In this document: positions 4,607 to 32,762 of the stretch, in pieces
Layout of the letters: the number at the start of each line of letters is the position of its first letter
Position numbering within the stretch: position 1 is the stretch's first letter
NCBI GenBank assembly: GCA_030430875.1
Contig: JAUIKI010000001.1
Location: forward strand, 1 to 32,952
Direction of reading: 5' to 3'
Length of the DNA stretch: 32,952 nt
DNA from: Gammaproteobacteria bacterium
GTDB taxonomy: Bacteria > Pseudomonadota > Gammaproteobacteria > Pseudomonadales > JAUIKI01
Made by a program: the position numbers and the translations under genes
The notes under the pieces: generated by a model
Seen by the model: only the letters and a program-made list of their open reading frames with translations
Told to the model about the DNA's origin: nothing
Database searches by the model: none

Positions 4607-5734
4607 TTATTTAATTTCGAGTGTAATCTCATCAGTTAAGAACTTATGTATATTCTCAAAAAAATAGACATAAAATGGAGCCATTTCTACATGCTTAAGT
4701 TGTGCATGATATTGATACGATTTTTCACCAAGTGTATCAACACAGCCATTGAATAATAAAACCTGTCTATCATGGATTTCGGTTTGATGAAAAATGCCAT
4801 ATCTATTCTTGTTAAATGGCGGTTTGTGGAAGAGTGTGAACCCATTTTTTGATGATGAGATCACCTTTATTTCATCGGTAAGGATATGCATGAAAGGCGA
4901 TATTGTATTTTGACCAAAAATTTCTTCTGCAAGCACAGTAGTTTGAGGGTTTGTCGGTAGCTTTTTAGCGCCATTCATAACAGCAGCTATTTTTTTCTGA
5001 TCAGTGGTGAGTGAAAATAAGCATTCCTCTTGATAGGTTTCAAAGTGATAGGTTTTGTTATCGTCTAAGTCATCAATAATTGCTTTCAGCTGATTAGTCG
5101 CCGAGAAAAGAACTTTTCTTTCGACATTAGACAGAGATTCCCAGTAATCATCCCAAGTAGGGGAGCTTGATGTTTTATCAGCCAGTAAATTTTTTGCCAT
5201 GCGAATTTTTTTGAGATTATGTTTGATCCGTTCAGTTTGATTGCTTTTAATGTCTTTATTAAAAGATTCCTCAGAGATATAAATTAAAAAACTTGTTTGT
5301 TCAGGTAAATATTTGAAATATATGGTATTTGTTTCTCTGAAACTATCTTCAAAAATCACACTATGGTCATCAAAGTAGACGATGTCATAGTCTGTAAGTT
5401 GGCTTTTAAGTCCTTCGATGGCGATTGCAGTGGGATCATCCGTTTGAATGAGTAAGATTTGTGACAGATTTCCATAAGGATGAATATGATTTTCTAGCTC
5501 GATGTTGAATAAAATATTGGGGTTGCCATAAAGTTCTAGTTTATCTAATTGATAGAAAAACATTCTGTCATCATAAGAAGCTTCATAGTGAAATGGCAAA
5601 TATAGTTCAAGATTAGTAACTGTGACCGGGTATGAAACCGTTGGTTTCGCAAAAAATGCGTCAAGCTCAGCTGGATCAAGTTTGACAGTATCAACTGGTT
5701 CATTGTTCACACGCATTTCAATGTTGTTCAGCAA
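4607..5734 (-). CDS. Hypothetical protein with no family I recognise; an orphan inserted between plsB and rsmJ
   Basis: This is a 375-aa uninterrupted ORF. The track start at 5734 is TTG, and an ATG (MRVNNEP...) lies at 5716. There is no signal peptide or TM segment. It is convergent with plsB, with only 6 bp between the two stop codons. Confidence 0.6.
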   Translation of the reverse strand: MLNNIEMRVNNEPVDTVKLDPAELDAFFAKPTVSYPVTVTNLELYLPFHYEASYDDRMFFYQLDKLELYGNPNILFNIELENHIHPYGNLSQILLIQTDDPTAIAIEGLKSQLTDYDIVYFDDHSVIFEDSFRETNTIYFKYLPEQTSFLIYISEESFNKDIKSNQTERIKHNLKKIRMAKNLLADKTSSSPTWDDYWESLSNVERKVLFSATNQLKAIIDDLDDNKTYHFETYQEECLFSLTTDQKKIAAVMNGAKKLPTNPQTTVLAEEIFGQNTISPFMHILTDEIKVISSSKNGFTLFHKPPFNKNRYGIFHQTEIHDRQVLLFNGCVDTLGEKSYQYHAQLKHVEMAPFYVYFFENIHKFLTDEITLEIK

Positions 5735-5992
5735 TTCATTTGTTGGTGTTGTCGATTGTAAACGTTAGCTTATTTTTATGCATAGTGGCTTCTTTTGGAT
5801 AGATTTAAGGAATATGGTGACGTTAGCATTTAAATATGCAGAAAATATTATGCAAGCTATGAATGTTTGAGACATGATGGCAAATAAATTGAGGTTTTTG
5901 CACTAAAACAACAGTGATAAAAAATTAGGTAACATTTTTTTGATGAAGATAAATTTAGGTTCAAATGTCTTGAAAATCTCATACTCTGCTAG

Positions 5993-6055
5993 ATATTCCT
6001 GATAGTTGAGCAATATTCCTGAATTCCAGCAAAATATTCCTGAGTATTCTATTTG
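5993..6055 (+). promoter_or_regulatory. Three phased direct repeats of ATATTCCTGA plus a TATTCTATTTG box (putative transcription-factor operator array)
   Basis: The copies lie at 5993-6002, 6013-6022 and 6034-6043, spaced 20 and 21 bp apart, and the spacers are unrelated. The box is at 6045-6055. The same architecture occurs at 28160-28200. Confidence 0.5.
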
Positions 6056-6059
6056 GCTA

Positions 6060-6170
6060 TCATAGTAATTCGACGTATAGTAATGTCATCGAGGATGTGG
6101 CGACAATGTTGATAAAATCTTTGAGCAGTTCTCTCCCTTAGCCGTGCACTTAGGTGTGCGGCTTTTTATA
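6060..6170 (+). ncRNA. Candidate small RNA (orphan transcription unit; TSS not determinable from sequence)
   Basis: The + strand carries a strong intrinsic terminator at 6140-6168. No + strand ORF precedes it; the longest is a 9-codon ATG frame at 6083. Both flanking genes are on the minus strand. The repeat array and AT-rich -10-like hexamers (TATCAT at 6058, TAGTAAT at 6063) lie just upstream. Confidence 0.35.
6140..6168 (+). terminator. Rho-independent terminator, oriented on the + strand
   Basis: The stem is AGCCGTGCAC / GTGTGCGGCT, 10 bp including two G-U pairs, with a TTAG loop. It is followed by TTTTTATATTTT. The minus-strand reading lacks a U-tract. Confidence 0.7.
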
Positions 6171-6269
6171 TTTTCCCATTTGTGACATGTCATTTAACGA
6201 TCAGTTAACTACCAGTTTTCTGAGAAAATCTATTTGCTGTGTATCAATAGTTATCTCAAAAGTCTCTTG

Positions 6270-8402: not shown

Positions 8403-8948
8403 TTAGTAAGTTAATGTTTCGATGGTGTGATTTTGATTCGTGTAGATGCAGATATTGCCTGCAATGCCTAAGGATTTCTCCACAATAGATTTTGCATCTA
8501 ATTCGGTGTTTTCGATCAGAGCACGAGCAGCTGATTGAGCATAAGCGCCACCTGATCCAATAGCAATTAAGTTGTCTTCTGGTTCCACAACATCACCATT
8601 ACCAGTGATAATCAGAGAATTAACCTTGTCAGCCACTGCAAGTAGCGCTTCAAGACGTCGCAACATGCGATCAGTTCGCCAATCTTTAGCAAGTTCGACC
8701 GCAGCACGCAGTAAATTACCCTGGTGTTTTTCAAGTTGGGCCTCAAAGCGTTCAAATAGCGTGAACGCATCTGCTGTGCCGCCTGCAAATCCTGCTAAAA
8801 TTTTGTTTTGATAAAGTCGTCGGACTTTTTTGGCATTAGATTTCATGACGATGTGACCGAGTGTGACTTGTCCGTCACCGCCGATAACGACGGTATTATT
8901 GCGTCTGACTGAGACGATGGTAGTACCATCAAATTGGGGTAGGCTCAT
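8403..8948 (-). CDS. hslV: ATP-dependent protease subunit HslV
   Basis: The track ORF (to 9050) is over-extended. Homology starts at [18 protein letters not shown]..., with the ATG at 8948. The GDGQVTLG and [10 protein letters not shown] blocks are present. Eight residues precede the catalytic Thr. Confidence 0.93.
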
Positions 8949-9234
8949 AGTGATTTCATATTGAGTTAGATTGATGAATAGTATGTAATGAGATTCCTGT
9001 AGCAAAGTTATAACGATAAAAAATGGTTGAAAAGTGCCGGTCTTGTGCATTAGGTTGGCTATTTTTTCTGATTTTTTCTTTCACTGTCCTTTACTGCAAA
9101 TGTCTCAGTTTGATTACATTAGCTTTCAAGAAGTTCTGCATTTTATCGCTTATTTTTGCGGAAATTTTGATTTTTAAGTCAAAATTCACTAGAAATGGCG
9201 TAAATGGAAAATTATCAAGCTGATAAGCTGAAAG

Positions 9235-26702: not shown

Positions 26703-27389
26703 CTAAAAACTTGCCCTACGAGAGACATGAGAATTATGAAAACTCATTGCGGAGATCAACAAACCACCCAAAGAAAATAATTGCACTCCAACCCAGACTA
26801 ACCAATGATTGACTGTGCGTTTCACTTGTTTAGTTTCAAGCAATTCAAATTTCCGGGTTTCACCATCTTGGAACTTTTCAGTTTTAATCCCCAAATTTTC
26901 GTAGCTGACAAAAAAAGTTCCATCTCCATTACCACCATAGATATTTAGCGCATTATCTCTATTGTCACTAAAATAAACATAGGCTGTTTCTGGGAAAAAA
27001 ATATTAAATTGCCCAATAGCTATGCATAAAACACCTGAAAACATTAATGCGACTAACAGCAATAAATATTGCTTCTTTTTATGTGTTTGATTTTTTTTCA
27101 GATCAAACGCACCATAATTCTCAATGGCGATGTGCTTGAAATATTTGCGAATGATCAGAGGGTCTAAACCGACTAATAGCTCAGTTCGATTAAGTTTAAA
27201 AACAGCTGCAATTCGATCAAAAACTTCAACCGATGGAATGGCTTTATCTTTTTCCAATTTAGAGAGATAAGAGGCATCGATTTTAAGACTCTCAGCAAGC
27301 TCTGCTTGGGTATATTGTTTATCAAGACGCAGCGTTCTGAGTTTTTCTCCGAAACTAATAAATGTACTTTGATTGACGACTGATAACAT
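26703..27389 (-). CDS. Membrane-anchored XRE-family HTH regulator (HTH, TM, roughly 65-aa extracytoplasmic segment, TM)
   Basis: The 228-aa ORF has the HTH FGEKLRTLRLDKQYTQAELAESLKIDASYLSKLEKDKAIPSVEVFDRIAAVF. Hydrophobic spans are YLLLLVALMFSGVLCIAIGQF and HWLVWVGVQLFSLGGLLISAMSF. It starts 3 nt after its paralog. Confidence 0.75.
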   Translation of the reverse strand: MLSVVNQSTFISFGEKLRTLRLDKQYTQAELAESLKIDASYLSKLEKDKAIPSVEVFDRIAAVFKLNRTELLVGLDPLIIRKYFKHIAIENYGAFDLKKNQTHKKKQYLLLLVALMFSGVLCIAIGQFNIFFPETAYVYFSDNRDNALNIYGGNGDGTFFVSYENLGIKTEKFQDGETRKFELLETKQVKRTVNHWLVWVGVQLFSLGGLLISAMSFHNSHVSRRASF

Positions 27390-27392
27390 ATT

Positions 27393-28064
27393 TTATTCCT
27401 CAGCCCCGATCAAAGAATCCTTGCCATCAATTCGGTATATAACTTTCACATAGCAAAAATACCCTATTCCCATCAACATCAATATGCCTCCCATCAATAT
27501 TAGCCAAGGATGGTGACTTTGCTCATATTTTTCCAACAAAAAGAACTCTTTAAAGTCTGCTGTTTTTTTCTCAAGAATTTCTCCGGCGTAATAATCCAGC
27601 TCAATTGTTTCTCCAGTGGATGCAAAACCATATCTAGGCTCCTCATATTTTTCCAACCATTGCTTGGTATAAAAACGTGGACCAGACTGGAGGTAGTGGT
27701 AATGCTGAGTTGGCAGCAACACTCCGCCACTCAAAAGCGCTAAACCGATCCATATCGACACAAGCGCTACCCAAGACCTATGCAGTTTTTGCGCGAGTTT
27801 CTTTAATTGTCGTTCTTTTGCGGAAATACCGATATTGCCAAAATTTTCAGATAAAAAATTTGTATCTACTCCTTCAATCAGCTCCATTAAGCTAATGTTA
27901 TAAATAGTGGCTAATTTTTCTAATATATCAATCGTTGGAATAGCACGATTATTTTCTAGTTTGGATAAGTATGACTGCTCAATATCGCTGTGAAGCGCCA
28001 ATTCTTTTTGAGTCCACTGTGTTGTTGCTCTTAAGGCGCGTAATCTTTCACCTAATTTCATCAT
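27393..28064 (-). CDS. Membrane-anchored XRE-family HTH regulator, paralog of the downstream gene
   Basis: The HTH reads LGERLRALRATTQWTQKELALHSDIEQSYLSKLENNRAIPTIDILEKLATIY. Hydrophobic spans are WVALVSIWIGLALLSGGVLLP and WLILMGGILMLMGIGYFCYV. The track start at 28073 is TTG, and ATGs lie at 28064 and 28061. Confidence 0.75.
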   Translation of the reverse strand: MMKLGERLRALRATTQWTQKELALHSDIEQSYLSKLENNRAIPTIDILEKLATIYNISLMELIEGVDTNFLSENFGNIGISAKERQLKKLAQKLHRSWVALVSIWIGLALLSGGVLLPTQHYHYLQSGPRFYTKQWLEKYEEPRYGFASTGETIELDYYAGEILEKKTADFKEFFLLEKYEQSHHPWLILMGGILMLMGIGYFCYVKVIYRIDGKDSLIGAEE

Positions 28065-28159
28065 GATCAGCAATATTTTTAATGTTAAAAACGCAGTATA
28101 GCGAGTTTCTTTTCTTTCTCAACTCCTTTTAAGTGATTGATAGTTAAGGAAAGGCAGCG

Positions 28160-28200
28160 ATATTCCTCAATAGGCATGATCATTCCTCATATTCTATTTG
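28160..28200 (+). promoter_or_regulatory. Two phased ATTCCTCA repeats plus a TATTCTATTTG box in the divergent XRE / secreted-cluster promoter region
   Basis: ATATTCCTCA is at 28160-28169 and TCATTCCTCA at 28180-28189, 20 bp apart. The identical 11-mer TATTCTATTTG follows at 28190-28200. The layout matches 5993-6055. Confidence 0.45.
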
Positions 28201-28295
28201 TGTTTCTTTGCCACAAACTGAAAATAGGCCACACAGCTTGCAGGACAACTTCAACTTGCAGCTGTATCAACAAATCAACCTAACCGGAGACAGTT

Positions 28296-28763
28296 ATGAA
28301 ACTAAAACACTTGATTGCAATATTAAGTATCACATTAACCACACCACTGGCTGCAAATGAAGTCGTTAAAACAGGAGTGGCCATCCCATTAGATTACACC
28401 GCGCTTTATCTTGTTGATAAAACATTGGCAGATTCAAAAGCTGGTGAAATTGATAAAAAACCTTATTTTGTCAAGTTAGTAGGCCTGAAACCAGGTGAAC
28501 AATATGGCAAGAATGAATCACAACTTTGGGAAGCATTGACTGATTTAGTTCAACTGGGTAGTGGCAACTCAGCAGAAGCAAGCTGTCAGATAGTTAGTAG
28601 TTTATTTCATCATGATGATTATGCTCGTGCAGCTATTTGTTCAATCGATGGTAAAGATCTTGGTGAGCAATTAATTGCAACTGGGTTTTATTCAGTGAAT
28701 CGTGATGAGACTTATGCCAAGGGAATGGATATTGCATTGGCTAAACGAAAAACAAGCGCGTGA
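28296..28763 (+). CDS. Exported staphylococcal-nuclease-like (SNase/thermonuclease fold) protein with a probable 3' frameshift
   Basis: The signal peptide is MKLKHLIAILSITLTTPLAA|NE. SNase-like blocks are LVDKTL..., YFVKLVGLKPGEQYGK and DDYARAAICSIDGKDLGEQLIATGF. The family-typical tail EKQAREKKLGIWS is encoded in a different frame at 28747-28827. Confidence 0.5.
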   Translation: MKLKHLIAILSITLTTPLAANEVVKTGVAIPLDYTALYLVDKTLADSKAGEIDKKPYFVKLVGLKPGEQYGKNESQLWEALTDLVQLGSGNSAEASCQIVSSLFHHDDYARAAICSIDGKDLGEQLIATGFYSVNRDETYAKGMDIALAKRKTSA

Positions 28764-28909
28764 GAAAAAGCTGGGGATTTGGAGTAACGTAGAAGCACCA
28801 TCATCAAGTGGTGTCATTAATCAATGACGACACGCTCTGAGATCTTTGCGCTAAAGACTCAACGATAAAAAATGGTTAAGACATTGATTTTTAATAAGGG
28901 AGAAAACAC

Positions 28910-29479: not shown

Positions 29480-29866
29480 ATGAAAAAATTATTAGCCCTA
29501 TTGTTTATTAGCCCGCTAGGTGTCCCAATAGCATGGTGTCTTTATATGCTTATATCTAGTGGAAGTTTAAAAATTTCTGACATAAGTCTAATTTTTGCAG
29601 GTTATTTAAGTGGATTAATTGGTGCAACAACTCTTGGTGTTCCATTCTATTTTGCTCTCAAGAACTACCATAAAGAACAATCTCTTTGGCTGGTTTTATT
29701 AGGATTCTTGAGTGGCTTTTTAATGGCATTTCCAATGGTGGAGGTTGGTGGACTTGAATTTATTAATTTGACATTGATGGGGGGGGTTTCAGGGTTTACA
29801 GTGGCATTAATCGCTTGGGTTTTAATAAACGTACTTAAGATAAATAAGCCGAGACCTTTGTGCTAA
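29480..29866 (+). CDS. Small integral membrane protein with about 4 TM segments, hypothetical
   Basis: The 128-aa ORF is almost entirely hydrophobic helices. It contains the G8 tract. Confidence 0.6.
   Translation: MKKLLALLFISPLGVPIAWCLYMLISSGSLKISDISLIFAGYLSGLIGATTLGVPFYFALKNYHKEQSLWLVLLGFLSGFLMAFPMVEVGGLEFINLTLMGGVSGFTVALIAWVLINVLKINKPRPLC
29779..29786 (+). repeat. Homopolymeric G8 tract inside a coding sequence
   Basis: I read it directly as ttgatGGGGGGGGtttc, encoding M-G-G-V. It is the only long G/C run I saw in this AT-rich window. Confidence 0.9.
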
Positions 29867-30015
29867 AAATCAATGCAAGAAAAATGAGGAAAAAACTTCA
29901 GATTGAGGCGAAAAATTCAGGTAATAACGAGCTATTAACCATTTTTTATCGTTGTAGTTTTAGTGCAAAAGTCTCAGATTATTATTTCAAATTAAAACAT
30001 TCAAAGGAGCAGATA

Positions 30016-31773
30016 ATGAAACAATATTTACGAGCAATTTCAATCTTCACATTTTTACTGACGTCAGGAGCAGTATTTGCTGAAACGATAATAGTTGACA
30101 CTACGAAAGATAAATTTTCGGATTCTAAAACTGCACAATACAACTGCTTATTAGGCGAATTAAGCCCCGACTGCTCTTTACGTGAAGCTGTGCAGACAGC
30201 CAATGACCTTCCAGGAGATGACACAATCATTTTGGGTGAAGGCACTTATAAACTGACCTTGCATGGCATGGATGAAGAATACAACAAAACAGGTGATTTA
30301 GATATTAAAGACACCCTTACAATCACCGGTATTGCAGCAGAAAAAACATTCATTGATGGTGACCTTGCAGACCGAATTTTTCACCATCATAAAGGTAACT
30401 TAACTTTAAATAAGTTAACACTGATAAACGGGATAATCGTATATTCAAAAACGTTGAATACCTTTGGTACTGGAGGTGCAGCAATACTCAGTAATTTAGT
30501 GGGTAAATTAAGTATCAATCAAGTGATAGTACGAAACAATACAACTGAGTTTACAGATGAAATCTATTGCCAAATCGAAGGCATTCCATTTGAACCAAGC
30601 ATTGGAGAAGGCAATACCATTTTTTATCACGGCAACGATCTTTCCCTCACAGGATCAGCTATTATAAACAATCAATTTACCTGTTTAGGTGAACCTGCCA
30701 ATCATTTCATCTTTGGTAAAGGCTATGCTCTCTTTGCAAAAACAGATAAATTAAGGTTAGAAAATGTCTTGATTGCTAATAATGTAACTGAAGAAAGTGC
30801 TGAAAACAGGCATGCAACTGTACTGCTTGACTGTTATGGACAATCAACCTGTCAACATACTATCGATAAAGTCACTATGAGCCACAATGGTGAGCTAAAT
30901 ATCATGTTTGATTTCAATTTTGAAGAACTTAATGATGTATCGATTAATATTAACGAACTCAAATCTTCTATGGGTAGGGTATTAATCGATGCAATCAACT
31001 TTTCTGAGAATGGTGAACATAACATTGATCTCGTCATTAAAAATAGTTCATTTGAAAATTCGGAGCTCTACGGATTACAATATCAATCTTATGAAAGATA
31101 TGATGATAGCGAGCAAAAAAGTCTGATCATCGTCAATGCATCAATTGAACATTCTACATTCGCCAAAAATGGTATTGGAGTTAAATTATTTAAAAATATA
31201 GAAGATCAAAATTTTTGGTTGCTACGCAATAATACCATTAGTGGAAATACACAAGGTGGTATTGATGTAGGTGGCTTCAATGCATTGGATTTGACTTATA
31301 ACACCATTGCCTTTAATGGTGATCCAAGTAAGGATATAGATGGCGTTAATATTTTTTATGGTAGTTCGGTAACAAATGTCAATCTACTAGGCAATATTAT
31401 CAGCAATCCACAAGGTGGAAAAAGCTGTGCTGGACATACTTACCAAATGTATTCACAAACATACAATCTAGATAGCGATGGAAGTTGTTTATTCTATCAT
31501 CCAGCAGAAGGTGACATAATCGGCTTTGATCCATTATTAAAGTCACTTGCTCATAACGGCGGAAAAACTAAAACTCACGCTTTGAAAATAGGCAGTCCTG
31601 CCATTGATGCCGCTAAGGTTACTGAAAAGGATACTGGCACGGTGTTTGATCAGCGTTATGTTTCGAGAACAGGCAATGGTGTTGGCAATAATCCTGACAT
31701 AGGGTCTTTTGAACTATTTACTCCACCATCTTTGTCTTGCGATATTATCACCTGTGGTGGGCCGGAAAACTAA
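30016..31773 (+). CDS. Secreted right-handed parallel beta-helix protein with an N-terminal CSLREA motif
   Basis: The track start at 29860 (GTG) is over-extended. The ATG at 30016 follows AAGGAG and gives the signal peptide MKQYLRAISIFTFLLTSGAVFA|ETI. A literal CSLREAVQTANDLPGDDTIILGEGTY is present, followed by many N/G/I-rich beta-helix-like repeats. The C-terminus reads FDQRYVSR...NPDIGSFE. Confidence 0.75.
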   Translation: MKQYLRAISIFTFLLTSGAVFAETIIVDTTKDKFSDSKTAQYNCLLGELSPDCSLREAVQTANDLPGDDTIILGEGTYKLTLHGMDEEYNKTGDLDIKDTLTITGIAAEKTFIDGDLADRIFHHHKGNLTLNKLTLINGIIVYSKTLNTFGTGGAAILSNLVGKLSINQVIVRNNTTEFTDEIYCQIEGIPFEPSIGEGNTIFYHGNDLSLTGSAIINNQFTCLGEPANHFIFGKGYALFAKTDKLRLENVLIANNVTEESAENRHATVLLDCYGQSTCQHTIDKVTMSHNGELNIMFDFNFEELNDVSININELKSSMGRVLIDAINFSENGEHNIDLVIKNSSFENSELYGLQYQSYERYDDSEQKSLIIVNASIEHSTFAKNGIGVKLFKNIEDQNFWLLRNNTISGNTQGGIDVGGFNALDLTYNTIAFNGDPSKDIDGVNIFYGSSVTNVNLLGNIISNPQGGKSCAGHTYQMYSQTYNLDSDGSCLFYHPAEGDIIGFDPLLKSLAHNGGKTKTHALKIGSPAIDAAKVTEKDTGTVFDQRYVSRTGNGVGNNPDIGSFELFTPPSLSCDIITCGGPEN

Positions 31774-31841: not shown

Positions 31842-32234
31842 TTAGATAATGCCCTTTTTTATATTGCGCACTGTGAATATAGTCACAATAACACGACCTA
31901 GCTCTAGAATAGCAGCAATAAATATCAGTGCTTGATAGGCTGCCATGTCTCCAAAAAACAAATAATTTATCTTAGTAATGAAACCAAAAGTTAATAAAAA
32001 AAACATTAGCCTAAAAGGAAACTGAAAATATACAAGATAATAAGACCATCGTTTTCCAAGTAGAAGTCCAATGCCTGAAATGAACAAACTGATGACCGTA
32101 ATGGCAGTTAATATGGATAAAACTCCTTCAAGAGGCATATTGAAAGAGATATTTGTTATATGCGTGTAAAATCTTACAGCTAGAATAATATCTAAGAGGC
32201 CAAATAGTTTTTGTATTTTTAAATAGTTATGCAT
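31842..32234 (-). CDS. Small integral membrane protein, hypothetical
   Basis: The ORF has about 4 hydrophobic helices. The track start at 32246 is TTG, and an ATG lies at 32234 (MHNYLK...). Confidence 0.5.
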   Translation of the reverse strand: MHNYLKIQKLFGLLDIILAVRFYTHITNISFNMPLEGVLSILTAITVISLFISGIGLLLGKRWSYYLVYFQFPFRLMFFLLTFGFITKINYLFFGDMAAYQALIFIAAILELGRVIVTIFTVRNIKKGII

Positions 32235-32321
32235 GTTTTTTCTCAACGAGATAACGTTCTATATCACTGGGTCAAGAAGTGTTAGTGTGCTGAGTTCAGT
32301 GATGATATTGTTAGCCAACAA

Positions 32322-32762
32322 TTATCGATACTCTAAACTAATAATTTCTTCTAACCCTGCAATGTGTATTTGAGGGTTATGTTTAACTCGGACTTCCTTT
32401 GTGCCTAATGGTAATTGTTTGTTAAGAGCTATAGACGTATTGCTAAATAATAAAGAAAGCCAGTTTGTTTCATTTGTAGAATTACAAAGTCTCCAAATAA
32501 CAACATTTATTTTTTCATCATTTTCTTTTTCCAAAGTAGTTGACTTAAGCGTAACTTGTTCTTCTGGAGACCCACTGAACAAGGTTATTCCTGAGAGCAA
32601 ATTTGATTGTTTCGTATCTGACGCTTGCCATCCATCAGGGATAGAGAGCTTTTCTTGCTTAGTATTAATGTCAGATGGCAAAGTCAATTCTTTCCATTTG
32701 TCACTCGCTTGTAATGATATCGGTAAGATTAAAAATAAGATTAATAGGCTTTTAAATTTCAT
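32322..32762 (-). CDS. Exported hypothetical protein
   Basis: The 146-aa ORF has the signal peptide MKFKSLLILFLILPISLQA|SDK. I recognise no family. Confidence 0.55.
   Translation of the reverse strand: MKFKSLLILFLILPISLQASDKWKELTLPSDINTKQEKLSIPDGWQASDTKQSNLLSGITLFSGSPEEQVTLKSTTLEKENDEKINVVIWRLCNSTNETNWLSLLFSNTSIALNKQLPLGTKEVRVKHNPQIHIAGLEEIISLEYR

Follow-up and report, generated by a model that had tools for sequence, protein, structure and literature searches.

Helically phased ATTC-unit arrays as candidate operators of a membrane-anchored XRE-type regulator family in Gammaproteobacteria

Repeat arrays, genes and transcription signals in the contig

The stretch of DNA analysed here (the window, 32,952 bp) is a MAG contig of ~40% GC carrying core genes of gammaproteobacterial type, namely plsB, rsmJ, hslUV, argS, priA and the gene of a SPOR protein. 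The Logan contig L119 matches the window at 100% identity and represents the same strain, and the organism is also present in SRR24442558. The closest relatives of its RsmJ are 45-49% identical, so that this genome has no close relatives, and exact-protein look-ups of RsmJ, HslU and a 155-aa protein described below returned no record.

Two intergenic loci lying 22 kb apart carry the repeat units (Table 1). Locus 1 occupies a gap (5735-6269) flanked by an orphan 375-aa gene and by rsmJ, both on the minus strand. It contains three plus-strand copies of the 10-mer ATATTCCTGA, spaced by 20 and 21 bp, the third of which is followed by a single G and the 11-mer TATTCTATTTG; two more ATTC cores are found at 6023 (GAATTCCAG) and at 6068. 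Locus 2 lies in the divergent gap between tandem XRE genes (26703-28061, minus strand) and the 155-aa gene (starting at 28296, plus strand) and is a two-site version in which ATATTCCTCA and TCATTCCTCA precede the identical 11-mer. The first-pass annotation had described the triplicate 10-mer with its 11-mer and a matching layout 22 kb away, and the sequence does read so, except that the 1-base gap in front of the 11-mer is present at locus 1 only, the 11-mer of locus 2 abutting the second 10-mer. The likeness of the two loci is restricted to the units, their spacers and flanks being unrelated. In both arrays the units are in direct orientation only, without the inverted half-sites and two-fold symmetry of a classical XRE/Cro palindromic operator, and both arrays point away from the XRE genes.

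With up to one mismatch allowed, the 10-mer was found nine times in the window against 2.77 ± 1.56 times in shuffled sequences, none of 100 shuffles reaching nine. Three exact copies fall inside 51 bp at locus 1, and clusters of at least three units numbered 0.39 on average in shuffled windows. Repetition of the 10-mer by chance is excluded. The 11-mer by itself is unremarkable (3 matches with up to one mismatch, 1.5 expected), and what counts is its position straight after the last 10-mer at both loci. An inverted 9/10 copy at 5806-5815, noted earlier ~70-90 nt upstream of the orphan 375-aa gene and in the sense orientation of that gene, is present in the sequence, but no role for it is supported, since single one-mismatch matches occur at about the chance rate. 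Two other single matches, also at chance rate, lie close to the XRE genes: a 9/10 copy, ATATTGCTGA (28067-28076, minus strand), directly before the ATG of XRE-TM regulator 1 and within its predicted 5' UTR, in which the invariant core C is changed to G, and a unit-like 12-mer, TTTATTCCTCAG (27392-27403, plus strand), at the junction of the two XRE genes.

The 10-mer pair is not diagnostic in a 596-Gb genome collection, in which the pattern ATATTCCTSAN{10,11}WYATTCCTSA gave at least 118 scattered matches in unrelated phyla; the matches listed are due to chance. Some of them were repeated within a genome or genus, namely in the Chitinophagaceae MAG C1_MAG_00011 (L006, L021 and L103; three contigs, one with two matches 84 bp apart), in Nostoc spp. 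(L015, L052, L084, L086 and L114) and in Paucisalibacillus (L039, two matches 82 bp apart), which suggests unrelated repeat families containing the pattern by accident.

Table 1 Features of the two array loci, the XRE-TM regulator genes and other elements of the window.
Feature	Coordinates	Strand	Remarks
Operator unit 1 (distal), putative, ATATTCCTGA	5993-6002	+	ATTC core at 5995, 81 bp before -10 hexamer; family-derived matrix score 14.0-15.0, among top 4 in window
Operator unit 2, putative, ATATTCCTGA	6013-6022	+	Core at 6015, 61 bp before -10 hexamer; matrix top 4
Operator unit 3, putative, ATATTCCTGA	6034-6043	+	Core at 6036, 40 bp before -10 hexamer, corresponding to family site B; matrix top 4
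11-mer TATTCTATTTG, putative promoter-proximal unit	6045-6055	+	Core at 6046, 30 bp before -10 hexamer, corresponding to family site C (ATATTCATCT); 3' end overlaps -35-like hexamer
Sigma70-like promoter TTGGCT-17-TATAGT	6053-6081	+	Generic scan, 9/12 matches; probable transcription start near 6088; register agrees with family
Candidate small RNA, ~85 nt	6088-6172	+	5' hairpin, single-stranded UUCUCUCCCUU stretch, intrinsic terminator (stem 6140-6163 and U run)
XRE-TM regulator 2, 228 aa, tandem paralogue	26703-27389	-	Variant recognition helix IDASYLSKLEK
XRE-TM regulator 1, 222 aa	27393-28061	-	HTH (recognition helix IEQSYLSKLEN); small beta domain enclosed by two hydrophobic helices (98-116, 187-205)
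Sigma70-like promoter TTGAGA-16-TATACT of XRE operon	28095-28122	-	Divergent from locus 2
Locus 2 distal unit ATATTCCTCA	28160-28169	+	Core at 28162, 58 bp before GAAAAT; matrix 14.5, top 4
Locus 2 unit TCATTCCTCA	28180-28189	+	Core at 28182, 38 bp before GAAAAT; matrix 10.5
Locus 2 11-mer TATTCTATTTG, putative promoter-proximal unit	28190-28200	+	Core at 28191, 29 bp before GAAAAT
Weak promoter candidate TTTGTG-17-GAAAAT of 155-aa gene	28197-28225	+	Read from sequence; below generic-scan threshold; presumably activator-dependent
155-aa gene, ORFan	28296-28763	+	N-terminal signal-peptide-like segment
44-nt repeat copies	5883-5925; 8989-9028; 28836-28879	+
44-nt repeat copy	29935-29978	-
ORFan regions	28296-28763; 29480-31773	+
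ORFan regions	4607-5734; 31842-32762	-

The array of locus 1 leads into a predicted sigma70-like promoter that is followed by an intrinsic terminator (Table 1). Because no plus-strand gene lies upstream of this terminator and the interval has no credible ORF (just one of 9 codons, without RBS), promoter and terminator define a non-coding unit of ~85 nt. The unit, whose fold has an MFE of -25.9 and a z-score of -2.73, has the predicted attributes of Hfq-type, trans-acting sRNAs, being non-coding, preceded by a promoter of its own and closed by a Rho-independent terminator that ends in a U tail, and the product of locus 1 may be a functional sRNA. Rfam gave no match for 6088-6172 at gathering or permissive thresholds, and no homologue of the candidate sRNA was detected in Rfam, the window or the family loci described below. 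Searches of the intergenic regions with tblastn and blastn detected neither a remnant XRE gene nor a second copy of the sRNA, and duplex predictions against 27 translation-initiation regions scored no better than those of a shuffled sRNA.

At locus 2, the array ends at a weak promoter candidate, and the GGAG-N8-ATG of the 155-aa gene follows 70 nt beyond it. Among 1.84 billion representatives, the 155-aa protein had no homologue except itself. The sigma70-like promoter of the XRE operon runs in the opposite direction, and the array, centred ~75-105 bp upstream of it and in opposite orientation, may be shared by this divergent promoter.

XRE-TM regulators and the promoters of their relatives

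The two XRE proteins of the window (XRE-TM regulators 1 and 2) both consist of an HTH_3/HTH_19 domain and two strongly hydrophobic 19-mers (~98-116 and ~187-205). They combine a DNA-binding domain and predicted transmembrane segments in one polypeptide, as transmembrane transcription regulators (TTRs) do. In an AF2 model (pLDDT 79.8), residues 1-74 form the HTH and residues 118-181 a small beta domain, which is flanked by a long helix (77-115) and a further helix (185-215). Likeness to solved structures was confined to the HTH and involved DdrO, SinR (PDB 1b0n, 3zkc and 3qq6) and C.AhdI, and searches of Pfam and NCBIfam with the C-terminal part of the regulators and with the two orphan proteins gave nothing at the curated cut-off.

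Distant relatives of ~235-248 aa have the architecture in common and share the recognition helix IEQSYLSKLEN. The string IEQSYLSK occurs in every relative retrieved, an invariance that is partly a matter of ascertainment, both search tools having been seeded on it. A profile search detected more than 1,100 sequence clusters of XRE-TM relatives, which bear generic names only, with carriers in Colwellia, Shewanella woodyi, S. nanhaiensis, Cellvibrio, Woeseia and Steroidobacteraceae. Literature searches on the motif strings and on membrane-bound XRE regulators returned primers and unrelated papers only. The XRE-TM family and its motif are without a curated description and, to our knowledge, no member has been characterised.

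For comparison, we used 80 metagenomic loci with XRE-TM relatives, of 25-42% protein identity and 32-65% locus GC. As they were chosen by coding sequence only, the selection has no bearing on any conservation upstream. At 77 of these loci, ATTC units in sense orientation form a phased array 60-110 nt upstream of the gene. Within 300 nt upstream and in sense orientation, ATATTCATCT was exact at 52 of the 80 loci and present with one mismatch at 25 more; 400 control windows contained no exact match, and at the family loci no exact copy was seen in antisense orientation. The density of ATATTCCTGA at these loci was 0.52 per kb upstream of the gene and 0.004 per kb elsewhere, an enrichment of ~130-fold, and TATTCCTGA was present in 18 of 68. 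The family loci (347 kb) contained 48 unit clusters, of which 46 were sense-upstream of the regulator gene, and in 20.7 kb of Shewanella woodyi the array in the regulator-gene promoter was the sole cluster. Motif and regulator gene thus co-occur across genomes, as is expected of a TTR and its operator. Given protein identities of 25-45% and a 33-point range in GC, neutral inheritance cannot explain this conservation. No neighbour gene was conserved at the 80 loci, including any response regulator or other DNA-binding gene, so that no other conserved protein is available as binder.

A sequence logo of 66 non-redundant loci placed ATTC cores at -27 (weak), -18, -8, +2 and +14, followed by an inverted GAAT at +24 to +27 and by AAGAAT at +32 to +37. 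The spacing of successive ATTC cores at the family loci peaks at 9-12 and 20-22 bp, corresponding to a single or a double turn of the helix. As majority consensus we obtained ATAATTCCTT ATATTCCTCA ATATTCCTGA ATATTCATCT TCC TATTCCTGA AAGAATAGCC AAGAAT, and the unit consensus is ATATTCCTSA / ATATTCATCT. As the majority consensus contains ATATTCCTCA and ATATTCCTGA verbatim, both 10-mer variants of the window are consensus units of the family. When a 12-nt unit matrix built solely from the family loci was applied to both strands of the window, its four best positions (28159, 5992, 6012 and 6033, all on the plus strand) were the four ATATTCCT[GC]A sites.

The window arrays also share the promoter register of the family. 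In the family, the distances from the cores of sites C, B, A and Z to AAGAAT are 30, 40, 50 and 60 bp; the corresponding distances are 30, 40, 61 and 81 bp to TATAGT at locus 1, and 29, 38 and 58 bp to GAAAAT at locus 2. On account of these matching distances the 11-mer, which had been set apart as a box, keeps its reality as a sequence but loses its status as a separate element, being the promoter-proximal ATTC unit that corresponds to family site C. The alternative assignment of the 11-mer to family site D, with AGTAAT (6064) as -10, fits locus 1 and fails at locus 2, and was rejected in favour of site C. Judged by this alignment, the 20/21-bp spacing in the window corresponds to the family register with alternate units missing. 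Neither site D nor the inverted GAAT copies are present in the window promoters, and the ATTC-N6-GAAT inverted pair of the family promoters is absent from both loci. A rigid 59-nt matrix of the family promoter had no match in the window, whose XRE genes are without a canonical family promoter; the two loci agree with the family in units and register but lack the contiguous architecture as a whole.

The S. woodyi homologue lies in CP171410 at about 286,522-287,241 on the reverse strand, and its array occupies L203 9831-9900. No sigma70-like promoter was called at this locus, and AAGAAT could be an inverted half-site instead of a -10 hexamer. In the family promoter (L123-L202; L203 9831-9900) the half-sites converge at intervals of 10 bp, with five direct ATTC cores and then GAAT in inverted orientation at +24 and +34; given this arrangement, AAGAAT may be both -10 and operator. 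GC-rich members of the family keep a hairpin-like GCCGG..CCGGCGGC in the 5' UTR. In one marine lineage (L120, 3857-5729) a DUF3450-ExbB-ExbB-ExbD-TonB-TPR operon is oriented divergently to the XRE-TM gene, and because the neighbours differ in other lineages, this link to ExbB/ExbD/TonB is probably not conserved functionally.

Interpretation of the arrays and comparison with known systems

From these sequence comparisons we consider it probable that the arrays are same-face operator arrays of the XRE-TM regulator, of which the window encodes two members. The presence of the units at 77 of the 80 homologue loci and the transfer of the family matrix to the window strongly support, at the comparative level, the first-pass proposal, which had preferred same-face sites of an oligomerising transcription factor, possibly the two XRE proteins, to a mobile element or a repeat acting as RNA. 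Overlooked at that stage were the promoter and the terminator-bounded unit of locus 1, the candidate sRNA, and the wider distribution of the motif, which appears to be a property of the whole regulator family. We infer from the same comparisons that an XRE-TM protein is the binder and that its effect is activation. The most likely binder of the units is XRE-TM regulator 1, which has the family helix; paralogue 2, with IDASYLSK, may be reading something else.

According to this proposal, the 10-mers and the 11-mer would be half-site-sized operator units (core (T)ATTC, full unit ATATTCCTSA) of membrane-anchored, XRE-type one-component regulators. The units would lie on one face of the helix, ~30, 40, 60 and 80 bp upstream of the -10 hexamer, with the promoter-proximal unit abutting or overlapping the -35 position. 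Several HTH domains, kept parallel by their membrane anchors, would fill successive units head to tail and would recruit or stabilise RNA polymerase at promoters with a poor -35, as in class-II activation. The locus 1 array would drive the ~85-nt transcript with its intrinsic terminator, the candidate sRNA, and the locus 2 array the gene of the orphan, putatively secreted 155-aa protein, divergent from the regulator genes. In most other members, the units stand before the regulator's own gene, whose core promoter also contains GAAT in inverted copies, an arrangement that would amount to autoregulation, and the inverted copies (ATTC-N6-GAAT and AAGAAT) would add autorepression. The broader proposition is one on which we are evenly divided, namely that a gammaproteobacterial XRE-TM family of more than 1,100 clusters reads a head-to-tail 10-bp ATATTCCTSA code, mostly for autoregulation with inverted core-promoter copies, and that the code, reduced to every other turn of the helix, has moved before a new sRNA and an orphan secreted protein in the deep-branching MAG studied here.

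TTRs are represented by ToxR, which recognises direct repeats close to -35, and by TcpP, CadC and PsaE; BcrR is the representative of XRE type. The XRE-TM proteins would resemble them as one-component regulators whose cytoplasmic DNA-binding domain is tethered to the inner membrane and acts at promoters from there. They differ from them in the XRE HTH, in a predicted two-helix hairpin topology with a periplasmic beta domain of ~70 residues that has no Pfam or NCBIfam match, and in a putative operator of up to five head-to-tail 10-bp units plus inverted copies. TTRs are widespread, and the HTH is the commonest DNA-binding domain among those predicted (PMC10269533). SinR of Bacillus subtilis has a homologous HTH fold, and the TTC-containing core of its site resembles ATTCCT. 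The SinR monomer site, GTTCTYT, spans 7 bp and occurs in several copies at target promoters, both tandem and inverted (PMC3163267). SinR differs in being a soluble tetrameric repressor with a preference for inverted repeats, whereas the sites described here are strictly helically phased, mostly direct and placed like activator sites, and the XRE-TM proteins are predicted to be membrane-anchored.

The controller (C) proteins C.AhdI and C.Esp1396I, which were structural matches, are likewise small XRE HTH proteins. C proteins autoregulate through multiple adjacent operators upstream of their own gene, of which the distal ones activate and the proximal ones repress, and by analogy a similar logic may apply to the XRE-TM family promoter. 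Unlike the phased direct repeats described here, their operators are pairs of palindromes, and the proteins are soluble and encoded in R-M cassettes. A further parallel is OmpR, which binds hierarchically and on the same face to three contiguous, phased 20-bp sites ending beside -35 (F1-F2-F3 and C1-C2-C3) and has an envelope protein gene and sRNAs (MicF, OmrA/B) among its targets. Phased sites next to -35 and the combination of an envelope-protein gene with a small RNA, here as candidate outputs, are shared with OmpR; its winged-helix fold and its motif are different, and no OmpR-type gene is associated with the window loci or the family loci.

OmpR/PhoB-type regulators typically read direct repeats phased at 10-11 bp beside -35, whereas XRE/Cro-type HTH proteins usually bind palindromes as dimers. 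The sites could therefore be real and yet be read by another protein, such as an OmpR/PhoB-type response regulator, the XRE-TM gene being a conserved target only. We regard this as unlikely, although the geometry of window and family fits the classic winged-helix layout of direct repeats with a ~10-bp period abutting -35, and the purely direct window arrays sit awkwardly with the preference of XRE HTH domains for palindromes. The behaviour of SinR, which binds tandem sites ~10-fold more weakly than inverted ones (PMC3163267), weighs in the same direction. Against another binder stands the observation that the neighbours of the 80 loci include no conserved gene of a response regulator or other DNA-binding protein, that no such gene adjoins the window arrays, and that the window has no response-regulator gene. 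Moreover, the arrays are nearly exclusive to the XRE-TM upstream region (46 of the 48 clusters), the family promoter has the ATTC-N6-GAAT inverted pair typical of HTH dimers, and both motif and recognition helix are invariant over 32-65% GC, the helix partly by search seeding on IEQSYLSK.

Action at the RNA level appears very improbable. On the minus strand the units read UCAGGAAUAU, with AGGA in each of the three, and such GGA motifs might be CsrA/RsmA sites in a leader or sponge RNA; a minus-strand sigma70-like match, ATGACA-16-TACTAT (6089-6062), could drive a leftward transcript through locus 1. The best-conserved family unit, ATATTCATCT, however, has no GGA on either strand, which sets it apart from CsrA/RsmA repeats. 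The units are spaced by the DNA helical repeat and in fixed register to a -10-like hexamer on the plus strand, the divergent neighbours at family loci are not conserved, and the GGA-repeat reading found no match in Rfam. Even less credible, and already effectively refuted, is the reading in which a 22-kb mobile element has its ends or attachment sites at the two loci, or in which the loci are iteron-like replication or partition repeats. It would account for direct-orientation copies 22 kb apart, and iterons are likewise phased at ~20 bp, but the interval between the loci is core chromosome and thus not a mobile element or island: it holds rsmJ, hslUV, argS, priA and other core genes, is uniform in GC and has no integrase, transposase or rep/par gene, beside which iterons would be expected on a replicon or island. 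Flanks and spacers of the two loci are unrelated, only the units being alike, and the same units stand upstream of one gene family at 77 unrelated loci.

If the arrays are indeed operators of XRE-TM regulators, they would reveal downstream targets for this family for the first time. TTRs as such are already known, and the new elements would be the XRE-TM family, its unit and array architecture, and two putative targets. An anonymous DNA repeat would be tied to a widespread regulator family with generic names only, which in turn would gain a testable recognition code made up of unit, phasing and promoter register. HTH-bearing transmembrane one-component regulators are predicted to be very common, and few have known operators or targets (PMC10269533). 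A promoter signature that survives from 32% to 65% GC would be an unusually clean entry point, both for regulon prediction by matrix scanning and for work in the culturable S. woodyi. In the MAG itself, the candidate sRNA and the putatively secreted ORFan protein are nominated as outputs of what may be an envelope-sensing circuit.

A second repeat and the ORFan regions

A second, unrelated repeat of ~44 nt, cTGAGAyyTTTGCrCTAAAr..CAACGATAAAAAATGGTTAA, was found in four intergenic copies (Table 1). One of them precedes the locus 1 array by 70 bp, and another is located upstream of hslV. The mechanically called hslV ORF (215 aa, 8403-9050, minus strand) overextends, and with its likely ATG near 8948 the copy at 8989-9028 falls in the upstream region of hslV and not in coding DNA. 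Together, the copies at 28836 and 29935 make an 84% inverted pair; between them lie 1,055 bp with a DUF3828 gene and a 128-aa gene. The repeat could be a shared promoter or operator, or belong to a small mobile or invertible cassette.

Pfam had no match for the 375-aa, 128-aa, 637-aa, 134-aa and 146-aa ORFs of the window. The ORFans are concentrated where the GC content of the contig is lower (35-37% against 40-42%), and both arrays are located there too.
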